Origin: an uncultured virus (IMG/VR IMGVR_UViG_3300037466_002408) | Lineage: Duplodnaviria; Heunggongvirae; Uroviricota; Caudoviricetes | Length of the DNA stretch: 36,293 nt | Direction: 5' to 3' (one strand) | IMG/VR virus record: IMGVR_UViG_3300037466_002408 | Shown: positions 5,216 through 17,886 of the stretch, in pieces | Layout of the letters: the number at the start of each line of letters is the position of its first letter | Position numbering within the stretch: position 1 is the first letter of the stretch | Translations under genes and position numbers: made by a program | The notes under the pieces: model-generated | Databases searched by the model: none | The model's input: the letters and a program-made list of their open reading frames with translations, nothing else | What the model was told of the DNA's origin: nothing

Positions 5216-5549
5216 AAGAGTTTACGTCTACCGTAATCTGCACAAGAATTGTTTCAGTGTGATGTTGGGCGGCAAAGTCGTCGCCCACGTCAACGAAATT
5301 CACCTGAAAGATGTTGAATTCAGAGTGCGAGAAAATGGCCGACAAAAAGTTCTCCGAGAGGGGAAGAAAAATGTTCATGCTTTTGTTATTGGCACAGTAA
5401 TTGAGCAGCCTGAGAATAACGACTTCCCGTTTGAAGTGACTTATAATCCATACAAAAACAAATCTTTTATGATGGAAGATTATGATGGTTTGTGGGCAAT
5501 TAAAAAAGAAGCTTATGTTCATTTAAGAAATAATAAGGTGTACGTATGA
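5196..5549 (+). CDS. Conserved hypothetical phage protein
   Basis: YRNLHK..FSV, KNVHAFV.G, YNPYK pattern recognisable from many phages. Confidence 0.75.
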   Translation: MTELLGKRVYVYRNLHKNCFSVMLGGKVVAHVNEIHLKDVEFRVRENGRQKVLREGKKNVHAFVIGTVIEQPENNDFPFEVTYNPYKNKSFMMEDYDGLWAIKKEAYVHLRNNKVYV

Positions 5550-5986
5550 CAGAGCGGGATAAGTTAATCGCCAAAATCAAAGACGACATTGATAAAGGAA
5601 TGCAAAAGTTTGTTGAGCGAAAATTCACCAAACCTACCAAAGAAGAAGTCTCTGAATATGTCAGCAAAACTCTTGAGAGATACCTTGGGTATTGCAAAGC
5701 TGAATTACCCGACCCGCCAGAGGAATTAGCCACTATCGGCCCCAATGGAAACATTGTAATCAATGTTCGCGCAATGGCCGCAATGCTTTACTGGTACGAG
5801 TCTAATGAACAAACCCGAGCAGAGCTAATGTTCAAGAAGATGTATGGGCAAAACGCATTAGAGAACGTTCAGTCTGTGGGTTTTTCGCCAGAGGGAGATT
5901 GGCAAGTTAAATTCTTGCATCCAGTTGAATACTTCCTCGTTACCCTTGAGACTTCAAAAGATGGAGTGAAAATTGTCGAAAACTAA
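5546..5986 (+). CDS. Hypothetical protein
   Basis: Overlap-coupled 146-aa ORF. Confidence 0.7.
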   Translation: MTERDKLIAKIKDDIDKGMQKFVERKFTKPTKEEVSEYVSKTLERYLGYCKAELPDPPEELATIGPNGNIVINVRAMAAMLYWYESNEQTRAELMFKKMYGQNALENVQSVGFSPEGDWQVKFLHPVEYFLVTLETSKDGVKIVEN

Positions 5987-6776
5987 CGTAAATCGAACCA
6001 GCACCCCTATTAAATGGGCGGGCGGTAAAAGCTGGATGGCTGATGAGGTCAACGAAATTTACCAGAATCACCGAGAGAAAACTTTCGTTGAGTTGTTTGC
6101 TGGCGGATTAGGTGTCAGCTTTGCCATCAAGCCTGAGCGCGTTCTAGCTGTCGATAAGAATTTCGATCTGATTCGTTTCTATAAGCGGCTCCAAGAGAAG
6201 CCTGTTTTTGATTTGGAAATGAAGAATGACGAAGAGACTTATTATCAGCATCGCCAACTCTTCAACGATATTCGCAAGAAGTTCACGCTTGAGAATGAGC
6301 AGTTAAAGGCTGAATTGTTCTATTACCTCAATCGCTGTGGGTACAACGGCTTATATCGCGTCAACAAGAAGAACGAATTCAACGTTCCTTACGGCAAATA
6401 CAAGTATTCAAACGCCAAGAACGACTTGACTGAGTATTCGGAAATCATCAAGCACTGGGAATTCATTTGCGGTGACTTTGAGCGTGTCCGTTTGCTAGAG
6501 GATGACTTTTTGTTCATTGACAGCCCATATGACACGGAGTTTACGGCCTATACTGACGATGGCTTTACCTACGATGATCAAGTCAGACTTCAAGATTGGT
6601 TGGTAACAAAGAAGAACCCCATGATTTCTACAAATCAGGCTACTCCGCGAATGATTGAGTTGTATGAAAAGTACGGCTGGAATATCGAGTATCTTTCACG
6701 CCCCCGCAATTTCCGCCGAGGTAAAGACCGCACTGAGGAAGGGAAGCGCGAGATCTTCGCCACCAAGAACCTATGA
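5973..6776 (+). CDS. dam: Dam-family (D12 class) DNA adenine methyltransferase
   Basis: KWAGGK, ELFAGG, YNGLYRVN..FNVPYG, motif IV DSPY. Confidence 0.9.
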   Translation: MSKTNVNRTSTPIKWAGGKSWMADEVNEIYQNHREKTFVELFAGGLGVSFAIKPERVLAVDKNFDLIRFYKRLQEKPVFDLEMKNDEETYYQHRQLFNDIRKKFTLENEQLKAELFYYLNRCGYNGLYRVNKKNEFNVPYGKYKYSNAKNDLTEYSEIIKHWEFICGDFERVRLLEDDFLFIDSPYDTEFTAYTDDGFTYDDQVRLQDWLVTKKNPMISTNQATPRMIELYEKYGWNIEYLSRPRNFRRGKDRTEEGKREIFATKNL

Positions 6777-12770: not shown

Positions 12771-13155
12771 GGTTGGTCAAGTTTGGGAGAGTGACGACGG
12801 CAGAAAAGTTGAACTCATGACATGGGATCAGCTTCGCAAGCGTCGTCCCGGAAATTATGATAACTACGAGCGGTACGCTGAATTTGCCGCTCTAGTGGAT
12901 GATAGTGGTTTTGACGCCTATTGTTCAGATGGTCATCCTATCAGCAGTCTGGGTAAGAAGTATTACGAGTACAGTCTTGTTAGATTAATTCAAGATGTGG
13001 AGGATACCGAAGTGAAGATTCAAAAACTATCTGCCGTTGAGCATGCTGTCAACATTCTTGAGTTGTCCGAGAATCTATACCAAGACATCGAGGTTACAGC
13101 TGTTGACCAAATTCGCTCGATTGCGAAGTACCTAGAGGATAACAAACTTGTTTAA
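12763..13155 (+). CDS. Hypothetical protein, likely paralog of the preceding gene
   Basis: LKVGQVW start; SLV.LI.DV.E and AV.IL shared. Confidence 0.7.
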   Translation: MLKVGQVWESDDGRKVELMTWDQLRKRRPGNYDNYERYAEFAALVDDSGFDAYCSDGHPISSLGKKYYEYSLVRLIQDVEDTEVKIQKLSAVEHAVNILELSENLYQDIEVTAVDQIRSIAKYLEDNKLV

Positions 13156-13375
13156 GCTTGTTGGTAACGTCATTAAATACAAAGAGACTACCGTACTGGT
13201 GTTGACTGAGGGGCTGGCGAATAGGTTTTTCGCCGCCTCAATCGTCGGCTTGCTCAATCGCTCGTTATTTAGCGAACGCCAATTCCGAGGTAAGGTGATT
13301 GAGTACCAACAACTAATGGATCGCATTTACGACAATGCTGCCCTGTTGGACACTTATGGTAAGCAAGAAGATTAA
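13148..13375 (+). CDS. Hypothetical protein
   Basis: Overlap-coupled ORF. Confidence 0.6.
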   Translation: MFKLVGNVIKYKETTVLVLTEGLANRFFAASIVGLLNRSLFSERQFRGKVIEYQQLMDRIYDNAALLDTYGKQED

Positions 13376-13416
13376 GCTTCGTAAGCGTCGTAGACTTTTA
13401 GCGAGAGATAATAAAA

Positions 13417-13845
13417 ATGTGGCCTGTTTATGCAGTAATAGGTTTTATTGTTTACTTTTTTCTGATGGAATTCCCTCTGACGCTGCTTGCATCAAATCAT
13501 GCATTCAAGCAAGAAAATTGGAGGTTTTGGGCCGACAGGATTAGAATGTGGCCCTTAAGGCCAGCTTGGCTATATTGGTTGCAGGTTGTTTATTACAACT
13601 CTAAATTTTATCGCAACAAACAAGTCAAAATCGAAGCTCTTGAGCATTTTGAATTCGGCAAAAAGTCATTTGACCAACAGCTTTCAAAACTTGAAGCCGA
13701 ATTCAAACAGGCCGTCATTGACGGAGCAGAAGAAAACCGCTTGATGGATTTGGCCGTCAAGATGGTGCGTGTTGAGAGCGAGCTAGAGGACTACAGGAGA
13801 AAGGTCTTTGCCCAAGCTAAAAGTCAAACTAAAGACGGTCATTGA
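13417..13845 (+). CDS. Membrane-anchored coiled-coil protein
   Basis: Hydrophobic N-terminus, heptad-rich C-terminus. Confidence 0.65.
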   Translation: MWPVYAVIGFIVYFFLMEFPLTLLASNHAFKQENWRFWADRIRMWPLRPAWLYWLQVVYYNSKFYRNKQVKIEALEHFEFGKKSFDQQLSKLEAEFKQAVIDGAEENRLMDLAVKMVRVESELEDYRRKVFAQAKSQTKDGH

Positions 13846-14149
13846 AGAGTACCTTGTGCGCTTCCCTGATGTGAAGTATGTTGATGTAGAGGTAAAAACT
13901 TTCAGCAAGAGAATTCCCGCTCCATTGACTTGGGCGGGATTCTACATCAAAAACGAATATAATTTGAAATTCTCCATTGCTTCCGACTATCAAAGTGATT
14001 ACGAATTATTGATGAAGGAAATAAATAAGAATCGTTATATTCGCCAACAACAGCAGAACATCATTGGAATGATTGGCCGAGGCAGAATCTTCCGTTATTT
14101 AAATCCGTTGCTAGCTGATACAGAGAAGGAAAAATGCAGGAAACTCTAA
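13808..14149 (+). CDS. Hypothetical protein
   Basis: 113-aa ORF in operon. Confidence 0.6.
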   Translation: MPKLKVKLKTVIEEYLVRFPDVKYVDVEVKTFSKRIPAPLTWAGFYIKNEYNLKFSIASDYQSDYELLMKEINKNRYIRQQQQNIIGMIGRGRIFRYLNPLLADTEKEKCRKL

Positions 14150-14205
14150 TTTCGTTTCACTCCCACATAAACAATGCAGCATTACGGACACATTTACGTT
14201 ATTAA
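14134..14205 (+). pseudogene. Orphaned dnaE 5' end (MQETLISFHSH plus 12 unrelated residues)
   Basis: AGAAGGA RBS; 10 residues after Met identical to DnaE residues 3-12 at 14827-14856. Confidence 0.85.
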
Positions 14206-14824
14206 AAACGCCATCACTGGAATGCAATACGTAGGTCAAACAACTCAAGATATCTACGTAAGGTGGCGAAATCACAACAGCGATCATTCTAGATGCCCAT
14301 ATTTATTTTCGGCATTGAAAAAATATGGACGCGAAAGCTTCATATTGACAATTGTTGATTATGCTGAAAACAAAGAAGAGTTGGATGACGCGGAAATTTA
14401 TTGGGTTCGTAAATTGAACACTATGGCCCCAAATGGGTACAATGTAAAAGAACCAGGCGGCACCAGGGGCAAGCTACAGCAAGAATCTAAAGATAAAGTT
14501 GCTAAATCAAAACGCGCCACACTGAGCCGCAAGGAATTTAAAACATCGAAATATAAAGGTGTTGGATACTCAAAACAAAAAGGCAAATTCAGGTGCGCTC
14601 TTTGGATTGGTAAAAAGATTGTTGTCGAATTATATTTTGAATCTGAAGAAGTTGCAGCTAAAGTTTATGACTATTTTGCTTTTACGAACGATTCAGATTC
14701 CTATTTGAACTTTCCAAATGAAGTTTTAAGTGGCTATCAAGTTACAGAAATAATTAACAACGAATACAAAGACAAAAAGATAAAGCCTAAAATTCTTGAA
14801 AAGCTAATTGGAGAATTCTTTTGA
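14174..14824 (+). mobile_element. Free-standing GIY-YIG homing endonuclease with C-terminal AP2-like DNA-binding domain
   Basis: HIY-10aa-YVG, R..NH, E..W, NGYN; SKYKGV...FESEEVAAKVYD. Confidence 0.9.
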
Positions 14825-17800
14825 GTCAAGAAACTTTAATTTCCTTCCATTCGCATACTTCGTTGTCTTATCAAGATGCCCTCTCAACGCCAGAGGATCT
14901 AATTCATTATGCGAAACTGTACAACGCCCCTAGTCTCGCTGTCAGCGATCACCATAACCTTTGCGCGTGGCCGAAATTCTACAATCTAGCTAAAAAGGCA
15001 GGTATCAAGCCCATCGCATCTTGCGAAATGTATTTCCAATGGCACGATAAGCGTGATTCTGACAAGTCCTCCTACCATCTTCTTCTCACCGTAAAGAACG
15101 AGGCCGGTTGGCGTAATCTGCTCAAGCTGATGTATCTCTCCAACATTCCGGTGGCTGATGGCGGCGGTTTTTATTATCGCCCCCGAATCACCGAGAAGAT
15201 GTTGTACGCGCACAAAGAAGGACTTATTGTGTCCTCAGCCTGCGTGTCTGGTCCCATCGCCAAGCCTTTGTTAGCTGGCAATGAAATGGAAGCCCGCATG
15301 ATTGCTGAGGACTTCCGCAATAACCTCGATGATTTCTTTATTGAGATTATGCCTCACCGCTTGGAGATCCAGAGCAAGGTTAATTCTAAGTTGGTCAAGC
15401 TTGGTAAAGATATGGGCATTCCTGTTATCACCACGCTGGACATTCACTTTGCCGATTCCAGTTATGAGGATGCTTACCTTTGCAATGGCGATATTCGCCG
15501 CAATCGAACTATCACTGAGCGCAATAACCCTCAATCTGATTGTCTGCGTGACCCTGATTTCTATTATAAGTCAATCGCGGAAATCTATGATGTGTTTGAT
15601 GGTCACGGCATTACTAAGAGTGACATTCGTGAGTCAATCGCTAACACTGTGCTGATTGATAACATGATTGACTTCTCTTGGCAGAATAACCATTTTGCCC
15701 AACCTAAATACTCAGATGATGCCGACCGCCAACTAGAACTACTTCTCGCCAAAAAGATTCGTGAGAAGTTCGGCTCAAGCATTCCTCAAGAATATAAGGA
15801 TCGTACTCGCTATGAATTCAACGTTATTCGTGATATGGGATTTTCTAACTACTTCCTTATCCTTAATGATGCAATTGATTTCTGTGGCCGTGAGCGTATT
15901 AATGTTGGCCCTGGTCGCGGTTCTGCCGCTTCTTCCCTTCTGCTTTGGTTGCTCGGAATCACGAACCTAGACCCGCTTAAGTACAATTTGCCGTTTGAGC
16001 GATTCTTGAATAAGGACCGCACCGGTACCGTTCCTGATGTTGACGTTGACCTTGATTCTGATGGTCGTGAAAAACTAATCACTTACCTCAAGTCCCGTTG
16101 GGGCGAGAAGCATGTTGTGCAGTTGATTAACTACTCTCAGATGAAGCCCAAAGCGGCAATTTCCGATGCCGGTAAGTGGCTTGAGGTTGACTTCAAGGAA
16201 GTTAAGAACATCACTGCTGCTATTCCTGCCAAGGGTTATGACGAGGATGGTAATGCCTTTGAGCTGCCTTGGGATGACGTAATTAAGGTGCCTCAGGTTC
16301 AGAAATACATTGACCAGTACCCGCGACTGTTTGAGGTTGCTGGCAAGTTGGTGGGCTCATATCGCCAGCCCAACGTCCATGCTGGTGCCGTCTGTATCCT
16401 CCCTGAGCCTGCTGACGAGATTATTCCCGTTATGCAGAAGCGAGGCGACCAAGGTGCTGATTGCCTTATCTCCCAGTGGGATAAGAAAATGTCGGAGTTG
16501 GTTGGCGTCCACAAGTATGACTTCCTCGGCCTTTCAACTCTCAAGGTGCTGAAGGAATGCGAGGATATGACTGGCGTGGGCCTGCATACCATTGACTTAG
16601 AGAACCCGGCCACTTGGCGTTACTTCCAAGAGGGTAAGCACATGCTGGGTATTTTCCAGTTCATGGAGGATAAGACTCGCTCTTTCCTGCGGCAAATTAA
16701 GCCTGAGCGCCTACAAGATTTGTCGGACGTTAACACCCTGATTCGTCCCGGTGCTGACTCTGACTTGTATTTGAAGAATCGCAAATCCAAAATGATTGAA
16801 TACAAGTTTGATTTGCCGGAAGTCAAAGAGGAATTGAAGAATTCATACGGCGCTATTATTTACCAAGAGAACATCATGAACCTGGCTAACAAACTGGCTG
16901 ATTTCACGTTGGGCGAAGGCGATATGTTGCGTCGTGCATTGGAGAAAAACGATGCTGGCAAAATCGCCAAGTACAAAGAGAAATTCGTCTCGACTTGCAA
17001 ATACCCTGATATTGCTAATGACCTATTTGATTGGATTGGCGCTAACGCCGCTTATCTGTTTAATAAGTCACATGCACTTACTTACTCGCTAATTGGTTTC
17101 TGGTGCGCTTACTACAAGGCGAATTTCCCTCATCAATTCCTTGTGGCTAATTTGCGCCACCCCAAGTCCAGCCAAAAGTTATCCGAGCCTGAGTACATCG
17201 CCAACTTCATCCAGGAGGCGAAAGAAATGGGCATCAGCGTAGAATTACCTCGTCTGGGTAAGGCGTATGCTCTTCCGACTTATGACCCTATCTCCGAGAC
17301 TGTTTACTATGGCCTCGTTGGCATTAAGGGTATTTCTGAGAATTCTGCATACCCCCTGTCGCTCAATTCTGAGACTAACTTCGCGGATTTTGTGACAAAA
17401 TCTCTGGAAATCAAAAAGGAATACATCAACAACGGCAAAACCTCACTGCGGCCTGTTATTAACAAGGGTCACATCAAACGGCTTTGTCTGCTTGGATTCT
17501 TTGGAGATCCCGGCGAATACCTCAAAAAATACGAGGAGTATTTCAAGGAAAAAGAAGAAATTGAATTCACGGATTACGAAGACGCAGTTAATGACGCTGT
17601 TGGTTTCAGTTGGTTTTCGCCGCTAACAAAATACGAAGCGAGACTTCCTGAAAAATACAACGAAAAAGACCGCTATGTTATTATGAAAATCACGTATGTT
17701 AAAAAGGGAAATACAAGAGGACGTGATTGGACAATGATTAAAGGGGCCACAAACCACATGGGAGATACAACGGCTTTTCTCTCTCTTTTGGCGGATATTA

Positions 17801-17886
17801 AAAAGGGCGATGTTATTCTGTGCAAATACAAGAGGGGTCGAAACGCGGACTCCATCAGCATTGAGGACTGGAAGCTCCTGGACTGA
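14821..17886 (+). CDS. dnaE: DNA polymerase III alpha subunit (family C) with PHP domain
   Basis: PHP HSH, SDH, SAC..G, DIH; GPGRGSAA, FERFLN, PDVDVD, KYDFLGL, YQE, FNKSH. Confidence 0.97.
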   Translation: MSQETLISFHSHTSLSYQDALSTPEDLIHYAKLYNAPSLAVSDHHNLCAWPKFYNLAKKAGIKPIASCEMYFQWHDKRDSDKSSYHLLLTVKNEAGWRNLLKLMYLSNIPVADGGGFYYRPRITEKMLYAHKEGLIVSSACVSGPIAKPLLAGNEMEARMIAEDFRNNLDDFFIEIMPHRLEIQSKVNSKLVKLGKDMGIPVITTLDIHFADSSYEDAYLCNGDIRRNRTITERNNPQSDCLRDPDFYYKSIAEIYDVFDGHGITKSDIRESIANTVLIDNMIDFSWQNNHFAQPKYSDDADRQLELLLAKKIREKFGSSIPQEYKDRTRYEFNVIRDMGFSNYFLILNDAIDFCGRERINVGPGRGSAASSLLLWLLGITNLDPLKYNLPFERFLNKDRTGTVPDVDVDLDSDGREKLITYLKSRWGEKHVVQLINYSQMKPKAAISDAGKWLEVDFKEVKNITAAIPAKGYDEDGNAFELPWDDVIKVPQVQKYIDQYPRLFEVAGKLVGSYRQPNVHAGAVCILPEPADEIIPVMQKRGDQGADCLISQWDKKMSELVGVHKYDFLGLSTLKVLKECEDMTGVGLHTIDLENPATWRYFQEGKHMLGIFQFMEDKTRSFLRQIKPERLQDLSDVNTLIRPGADSDLYLKNRKSKMIEYKFDLPEVKEELKNSYGAIIYQENIMNLANKLADFTLGEGDMLRRALEKNDAGKIAKYKEKFVSTCKYPDIANDLFDWIGANAAYLFNKSHALTYSLIGFWCAYYKANFPHQFLVANLRHPKSSQKLSEPEYIANFIQEAKEMGISVELPRLGKAYALPTYDPISETVYYGLVGIKGISENSAYPLSLNSETNFADFVTKSLEIKKEYINNGKTSLRPVINKGHIKRLCLLGFFGDPGEYLKKYEEYFKEKEEIEFTDYEDAVNDAVGFSWFSPLTKYEARLPEKYNEKDRYVIMKITYVKKGNTRGRDWTMIKGATNHMGDTTAFLSLLADIKKGDVILCKYKRGRNADSISIEDWKLLD

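Follow-up and report, generated by a model that had tools for sequence, protein, structure and literature searches.

A homing endonuclease gene at the start of a phage dnaE gene, between two differently spelled copies of that start

A 36,293-nucleotide stretch of DNA from an uncultured virus of the Caudoviricetes (IMG/VR record IMGVR_UViG_3300037466_002408), hereafter the window, carries a GIY-YIG homing endonuclease gene at the 5' end of the polymerase gene dnaE. The opening codons of dnaE occur on both sides of the endonuclease gene, as a short stub upstream and as the beginning of the complete polymerase gene downstream, and the two copies spell the same 10 residues differently. Because a respelled spare start lies downstream of the endonuclease gene, the polymerase gene is whole without splicing. 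The locus is a clear phage example of an endonuclease cassette that replaces the start of a gene, although the design itself is known from fungal mitochondria. We consider it probable, at roughly 65%, that the endonuclease gene and a diverged donor dnaE start were copied in by double-strand-break repair at the 5' end of a resident dnaE. Either way, the arrangement indicates that a homing endonuclease can occupy an essential replication gene without an intron or intein by carrying a spare gene start.

The original prediction for this DNA, made from the letters alone, held that a ribosome-binding site and the residues MQETLISFHSH precede the endonuclease gene and then run into unrelated sequence, which our reading of the sequence bore out. 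After its ATG, the stub continues CAG GAA ACT CTA ATT TCG TTT CAC TCC CAC. Past position 14166, the same frame reads unrelated codons (INNAALRTHLRY) across the start of the endonuclease gene and ends at a TAA at 14203-14205. Beyond the endonuclease gene, dnaE opens with TTG AGT CAA GAA ACT TTA ATT TCC TTC CAT TCG CAT, giving a protein that starts MSQETLISFHSH. The GGAG and TTG predicted for this second start are both there, but an extra serine codon had been missed, so that the protein begins M-S-Q rather than M-Q, and the GGAG lies one base to the left of where it had been expected as a ribosome-binding site.

The two 10-codon copies share 23 of 30 bases, with a longest shared run of 7 nucleotides (nt). 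Their 7 base differences fall in 7 of the 10 codons and every one is synonymous, as had been claimed. The downstream copy has 10 G+C bases and the stub copy 13. A DNA repeat finder with 8-nt seeds did not detect the pair; at the peptide level, it is the sole 8-residue peptide recurring within 4 kb in six frames of the whole 36-kb window. In 200,000 simulations, 7 random differences preserved the peptide with a probability of 5e-6 under equal rates or 1.5e-5 under a transition bias of 4. That all 7 differences are silent therefore points to divergence under protein-level selection.

We give next to no credence to chance resemblance or an assembly chimera, which is contradicted both by the simulation and peptide scan and by further contigs. 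Over 1801 aligned bases of the region, one IMG/VR contig matches the window at 100% identity; G001, the nearest virus record, and L001 are one and the same 18-kb IMG/VR contig, likewise identical. Contigs from four further soil or rhizosphere runs match the window with 0 differences at both junctions, the left junction being crossed by X5 (13898-14287) and the right by X4 (14773-15358) and X7 (14715-14865). Every contig reaching a junction in these four runs has the endonuclease form, at patchy cover and a depth of 1-6. At that thin cover, no contig joining across the endonuclease, as an empty allele would, was seen. Since the studies may stem from one campaign, the contigs confirm the arrangement but do not count as evidence of its spread. 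One further contig, from run X6 (window positions 15091-15347), has 7 differing positions in 257 nt, indicating a slightly diverged strain in that sample.

The break in dnaE falls directly behind the second histidine of the HxH motif of the PHP domain, at which the dnaE codons of the stub stop. This agrees with the predicted breakpoint, and both histidines, H10 as well as H12, are conserved without exception among aligned relatives (9 of 9 and again 5 of 5). The HxH block lies within the first 25 residues of all 30 inspected homologues but one, P0012, whose call is shorter. Upstream of the TTG at 14821, the frame is closed by a TGA at 14797, and for this reason the TTG is the only start that includes the HxH motif, confirming that the copy behind the endonuclease completes dnaE. 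By itself, the downstream open reading frame (ORF) aligns to full-length relatives from residue 1, and the stub merely repeats 10 of these residues. Judged from its sequence, the 11-residue stub product cannot contribute to the polymerase. Taken together, the invariant HxH, the in-frame stop, and the brevity of the stub imply that dnaE works from the downstream copy and that the upstream copy is a remnant, albeit one that retains a motif resembling a ribosome-binding site and an ATG. We also considered a gene split into two working polypeptides, as in Aeh1 nrdA, and rejected this because the stub is redundant with the downstream ORF.

Automatic annotation misreads such loci. The public call of this DnaE (P0001, 1007 amino acids), which the public collection places on a 98 kb contig, starts at the TTG of Leu14, so that the invariant HxH is lost; the stub ORF has no call at all. 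Short stubs of this kind could serve as natural markers of past endonuclease invasions and of the sites where breaks were repaired.

As shown in Table 1, the parts of the locus are tightly packed. The stop codon of the upstream gene (TAA, 14147-14149) sits 16 nt within the stub ORF, an overlap that is typical for this operon, and the AGGA ahead of the stub is taken to be the original ribosome-binding site of dnaE. The stub ORF and the endonuclease ORF overlap by 32 nt in different frames. The endonuclease ORF runs from an ATG at 14174 to a TGA at 14822-14824, and the TTG start of dnaE overlaps that stop (TTGA).

Table 1. Coordinates of the features at the 5' end of dnaE, in window positions (SD, Shine-Dalgarno).
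Feature	Position	Strand	Remarks
Upstream phage gene, 113 amino acids	13808..14149	+	No family match; operon member
SD-like AGGA	14127..14130	+	3 nt before ATG 14134
Stranded start, taken as the original one of dnaE; ATG and 10 codons, MQETLISFHSH	14134..14166	+	Sequence reading
Stub ORF, 23 codons	14134..14205	+	11 dnaE codons and 12 out-of-frame codons
Left junction, ATAAACA, 7 nt	14167..14173	+	TAA in endonuclease frame; no SD-like motif
Free-standing GIY-YIG homing endonuclease gene, 216 amino acids	14174..14824	+	Pfam PF01541
GGAG in the 3' coding end of the endonuclease gene	14810..14813	+	7 nt before dnaE TTG
Complete dnaE, 1021 amino acids: PHP, Pol III alpha, finger (Pfam)	14821..17886	+	TTG start
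Replacement copy of 10 codons, QETLISFHSH	14827..14856	+	Compare 14137-14166

A duplicated gene end on either side of an endonuclease gene could also belong to a self-splicing intron or an intein, with the copies as exon ends and splicing restoring dnaE. Joining position 14166 to 14857 would indeed give an intact DnaE reading frame, and both types of element occur in this dnaE family. We nonetheless consider this explanation extremely unlikely. No Rfam family matched positions 13000-16000 at E values up to 1, whereas the same search detected a group I intron (RF00028, 96.8 bits) in the dnaE of the relative L004, and this positive control shows that the method is valid in this gene family. The insert contains only 7 nt of non-coding DNA on the left and 0 nt on the right, and RNA folds at the two junctions were no stabler than those of shuffled sequences (z of +1.4 and +1.2). 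By-eye inspection for group I splice sites, following the usual rules for such introns, yielded no repeat position that ends the 5' exon in U and the insert in G with the peptide kept. As for an intein, the endonuclease has an ORF of its own in a different frame and lacks a Hint domain, GIY-YIG being its sole Pfam match at E≤0.01 and a C-terminal scan at E≤1 adding only a weak AP2 match. Moreover, a duplicate with its own ribosome-binding site and start codon would be pointless for a splicing element. The original prediction, which had excluded both intron and intein, holds in this respect.

The catalytic domain of the endonuclease occupies residues 5-90 (Pfam PF01541, E 3.8e-12). PHROG homing-endonuclease families matched with E values down to 6e-24, PHROG 99 matched residues 123-184, and the catalytic domain of I-TevI (1mk0/1ln0) aligned to residues 7-93 with an E of about 5e-5. 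Blocks kept relative to I-TevI are GIY, YVG, RW..H, E, and NGYN. Two positions that are alanine in the two mutant PDB chains are arginine and glutamate in the endonuclease; we take the aligned I-TevI positions to be R27 and E75, exactly those at which the two chains differ from each other. The C-terminal part has a weak AP2 match (PF00847, E 0.0096, about residues 125-172) that, at 16.6 bits, falls short of the 33.3-bit cut-off, and the protein shares 32% identity over 201 residues with a metagenomic protein (P0129) having both GIY-YIG and AP2 hits. By its conserved blocks and its position outside any intron or intein, we classify the predicted protein as a free-standing, Seg-like GIY-YIG homing endonuclease. 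Its best full-length tblastn matches, at 28.6% identity and 86% cover, were in Vibrio phages K469 and others (H41-H47, at about 988-1548), where they fall under features annotated as terminase large subunit, which points to an endonuclease, so far unannotated, inside or next to the terminase gene of those phages.

The position of the endonuclease gene bears on how it would be translated. Its ATG has no SD-like motif ahead of it and falls within the stub ORF, with 29 nt to go before the stub stop codon. Ribosomes that initiated on the stub probably account for translation of the endonuclease, which would be at a low level. There is precedent for such an arrangement in phage T4, here and below as described in excerpts of PMC2988022: 5 of 12 free-standing endonuclease genes overlap an upstream ORF and have no initiation region of their own, with overlaps of 11-24 bp for segC, segF, mobA, and mobC, and their low expression is attributed to ribosomes re-initiating near a stop codon (PMC2988022). 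For DnaE, translation probably depends both on the GGAG site and on coupling to the endonuclease stop. A promoter and terminator scan gave counts not above those of shuffled sequences (7 versus 4.6±1.8 and 3 versus 2.2±1.6, respectively).

How might this locus have come about? In the account that we favor, a diverged donor phage would have had the endonuclease gene directly before its dnaE, with the endonuclease stop overlapping the dnaE start. The enzyme would have cut an endonuclease-free resident dnaE near the HxH codons, and repair would have copied the endonuclease gene together with the donor dnaE start, guided on the right side by dnaE homology. On the left side homology was presumably absent, and for that reason the broken resident end, at dnaE codon 11 just past the HxH motif, would have been joined non-homologously 7 nt before the endonuclease ATG. 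The 7-nt left junction is the proposed joint. As an outcome, the resident ribosome-binding site, ATG, and 10 codons would be left as a stub, followed by the endonuclease gene, with dnaE restarting on the donor copy. One-sided, microhomology-mediated illegitimate break repair has been described for T4 intron homing (PMC2988022). The silent differences would mainly reflect the divergence of two functional dnaE alleles, both under selection before they met, and this prior selection would explain why 0 of 7 changes alter the peptide even though the stub is now useless.

The two joints are unequal in a manner that fits this origin. The right joint is a co-adapted overlap, with the TTGA and with the GGAG inside the endonuclease ORF, as is usual where a free-standing endonuclease gene lies just upstream of a neighbor. 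In contrast, the left joint is abrupt, 7 nt long, and without an SD-like motif, and the stub ahead of it still has its natural overlap with the upstream gene. Base composition agrees weakly with a donor origin of the AT-rich endonuclease gene, the downstream copy, and the early part of dnaE. The endonuclease gene has a G+C content of 36% compared to 46.6% in neighboring genes, its G+C fraction at third codon positions (GC3) is 0.34 versus 0.52 for dnaE, and GC3 is 10/30 over the first 30 dnaE codons. The best composition change-point is dnaE codon 30 rather than a gene boundary, with a gain of 1.8 log-likelihood units.

Several observations weigh against this origin, or against parts of the account that accompanies it. 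With respect to composition, 6.8% of 30-codon windows in other genes are equally AT-rich at third positions, 3 of 27 genes start as AT-rich as dnaE does, and codon usage is undecided between the two copies (log-likelihood of -10.76 versus -11.30). With 7 of 10 codons changed, we roughly estimate that simple drift would give one to three amino-acid changes, and the absence of any mildly favors selection for the spelling differences themselves. No endonuclease-free close relative was found in the collections searched, so that polarity and mobility are putative, and the only relatives above 40% identity with flanking DNA, L003 (46% identical) and L004 (49%), have upstream genes that differ from those of the window. 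The endonuclease likewise has no close relative, the best non-self match being 46% identical over half of the protein among 13 hits at E≤1e-5, and consequently no dnaE-associated endonuclease lineage could be traced. Finally, the distance of 29 nt from the endonuclease ATG to the stub stop slightly exceeds the seven-codon re-initiation window given in PMC2988022.

The mild preference for selected spelling leads to a different explanation, in which the silent changes were kept to block self-cleavage or recombination between the copies, and the endonuclease and recoded start move as a cassette. Consistent with this, 7 of 10 codons were altered without a change to the peptide, even though relatives vary at 5 of its 10 positions, identical runs between the copies never exceed 7 nt, and the break is at the invariant HxH codons. 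However, we found no second carrier lineage with the cassette as a unit, and the cleavage resistance of the respelled copy is putative. The changes also lean toward AT as the endonuclease gene does, which fits a shared AT-rich origin, and fungal cases with similar, mostly silent divergence are attributed to a foreign donor in the excerpts of PMC3630166. The silent differences are explained as well by ordinary divergence of donor and recipient under purifying selection as by purpose-made recoding, and on balance we judge selected recoding unlikely.

Whatever its cause, the respelling may have consequences for the carrier. One half of the presumed target, the one next to intact dnaE, is changed by it, and homology by which the endonuclease gene could be recombined out would be lost. 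With its presumed target split and altered, the carrier should escape cutting, and with no shared run longer than 7 nt, recombination between the copies is unlikely to delete the endonuclease gene. A further step would be to see the endonuclease and respelled start as a homing cassette complete in itself, which replaces gene starts and passes between phages as one unit, a proposal that we put forward tentatively and regard as possible rather than probable. If so, the peptide-level repeat would act as immunity, the target being split and respelled, and also as a lock against deletion, there being no homology for recombining the element out. The stranded ribosome-binding site and ATG of an essential gene would have been taken over for translation of the endonuclease. 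DnaE synthesis would in turn depend on translation through the endonuclease gene, entrenching a parasite in an essential operon. Such a cassette would give endonucleases a third means, besides introns and inteins, of residing inside essential phage genes.

A different alternative to break repair with a donor dnaE start reverses the polarity: the downstream copy and dnaE would be resident, and the left block of upstream genes, stub, and endonuclease gene imported. No relative fixes the polarity and codon usage is undecided, as this alternative would allow. Nevertheless, the endonuclease stop and the ribosome-binding site are interlocked with the downstream dnaE start, whereas the joint of stub and endonuclease gene is abrupt, and the first 30 dnaE codons resemble the endonuclease gene, if weakly, in third-position composition. 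We therefore consider reversed polarity quite improbable and retain the import of the endonuclease gene with a donor dnaE start as our preferred account.

We surveyed 245 records for look-alikes of the duplicated start, 153 of which had a recognizable dnaE N-terminus together with 600 nt or more of upstream sequence. In 4 of the 153, a look-alike of the dnaE start lies upstream, three of the four being this same phage (the window, L001, and L162) and the fourth an unrelated bacterial contig, L112. On this high-GC contig (L112:2848-4005), about 55 bp are duplicated, spanning the dnaE leader and the first codons up to the PHP histidine codons. The repeat is identical over 36 nt and diverges thereafter, and its copies bracket a 1.1-kb insert with two minus-strand ORFs, one of which encodes a DUF5674 protein (E 1.1e-32), and no endonuclease gene. 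L112 is an independent insertion at the same spot in dnaE.

Searches for relatives of the locus itself were otherwise unproductive. A blastn search of positions 13400-15600 against 50,697 phage records gave no match, a single-protein metagenome scan confirmed 0 of 103 candidate stretches, and profile scans of viral, metagenome, and genome contigs found nothing above 49% identity with flanking DNA among the matches listed. The nearest DnaE proteins (P0002 to P0005) are 57, 55, 55, and 54% identical.

The closest design that we know from other systems is that of the fungal mitochondrial mORF 'gene hybrids', which occur in Glomus sp. atp6, atp9, cox2, and nad3 and in Allomyces macrogynus atp6 (PMC3630166). 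Partial atp6 and cob duplications next to endonuclease ORFs have also been described (PMC6279837), and both sources, like PMC2988022, are cited here from excerpts. There too, an endonuclease ORF (LAGLIDADG or GIY-YIG) lies in the end of a protein gene, the gene is read together with a replacement end, and the native end remains behind as a stranded duplicate. The DNA of the two ends is far more diverged than the protein, and no splicing is needed. The comparison with fungal mitochondrial endonucleases drawn in the original prediction is thus apt as far as PMC3630166 describes them. Unlike these hybrids, in which a foreign end replaces the C-terminal end of the gene, the phage element replaces the start of dnaE, and when a gene start is replaced the element must bring a ribosome-binding site and start codon while the old ones are left upstream. 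The host gene is a phage replication gene instead of a gene in mitochondrial DNA, and the duplicate comprises 10 codons only. Mobility and expression have been demonstrated for some fungal hybrids, whereas the phage case is known from sequence alone. Because it concerns the N-terminal end of a phage dnaE, the element works like an mORF hybrid but is not a member of that group.

The T4 Seg (GIY-YIG) and Mob (HNH) endonucleases, known for 'intronless homing', offer a second comparison (PMC2988022). As in the window, their genes lie outside introns and inteins and adjoin essential replication genes, co-conversion of flanking DNA is expected, and the endonuclease gene has no ribosome-binding site of its own and can overlap an upstream ORF (segC, segF, mobA, mobC). 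They differ in being placed between genes or in splitting a gene into two working polypeptides, examples of such splits being Aeh1 nrdA, T4 gene 60/39, and phage 25 gene 43 (PMC2988022). None of the T4 seg or mob genes described in the excerpts of PMC2988022 has a duplicated start of a neighboring gene together with a stub. In our literature searches, no published case emerged of a phage endonuclease accompanied by a duplicated end of its host gene. If the design were common in phages, it would represent an overlooked route of gene-end exchange between them, and it would also supply "recoded" gene ends liable to be misread as the product of selection on codon usage.

Other members of this dnaE family are also interrupted. 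In L004 (4004-8299), dnaE is 49% identical to that of the window, and a 280-amino-acid LAGLIDADG ORF (5270-6112) interrupts it at the PD|VDVD catalytic motif. A complete group I intron core (RF00028, 96.8 bits, 6077-6364) comes after that ORF. The DnaE relatives P0008, P0009, and P0012 have the intein splicing domain PF14890 in their precomputed Pfam lists. Like the element in the window, these are selfish, endonuclease-linked elements at a conserved catalytic motif of the same gene family, but they restore dnaE by RNA or protein splicing where the window's element does so by a spare gene start. This phage dnaE family is thus host to inteins, a group I intron, and a free-standing endonuclease, each at a different conserved site. 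Two further interrupted dnaE genes were seen in Rossellomorea phage phiT1 (H1) and Staphylococcus phage MVC_VPHSA2 (H9), where the DnaE match is in two pieces under two polymerase features, with an additional hypothetical protein among the matching features in H1.

The wider surroundings of dnaE in the window form a replication module. Besides DnaE, it encodes a ribonucleotide reductase fragment, a dUTPase, a dNMP kinase-like protein, a DnaB-type helicase, two adenine methyltransferases, a primase, a dCMP deaminase, and an SNF2 helicase.

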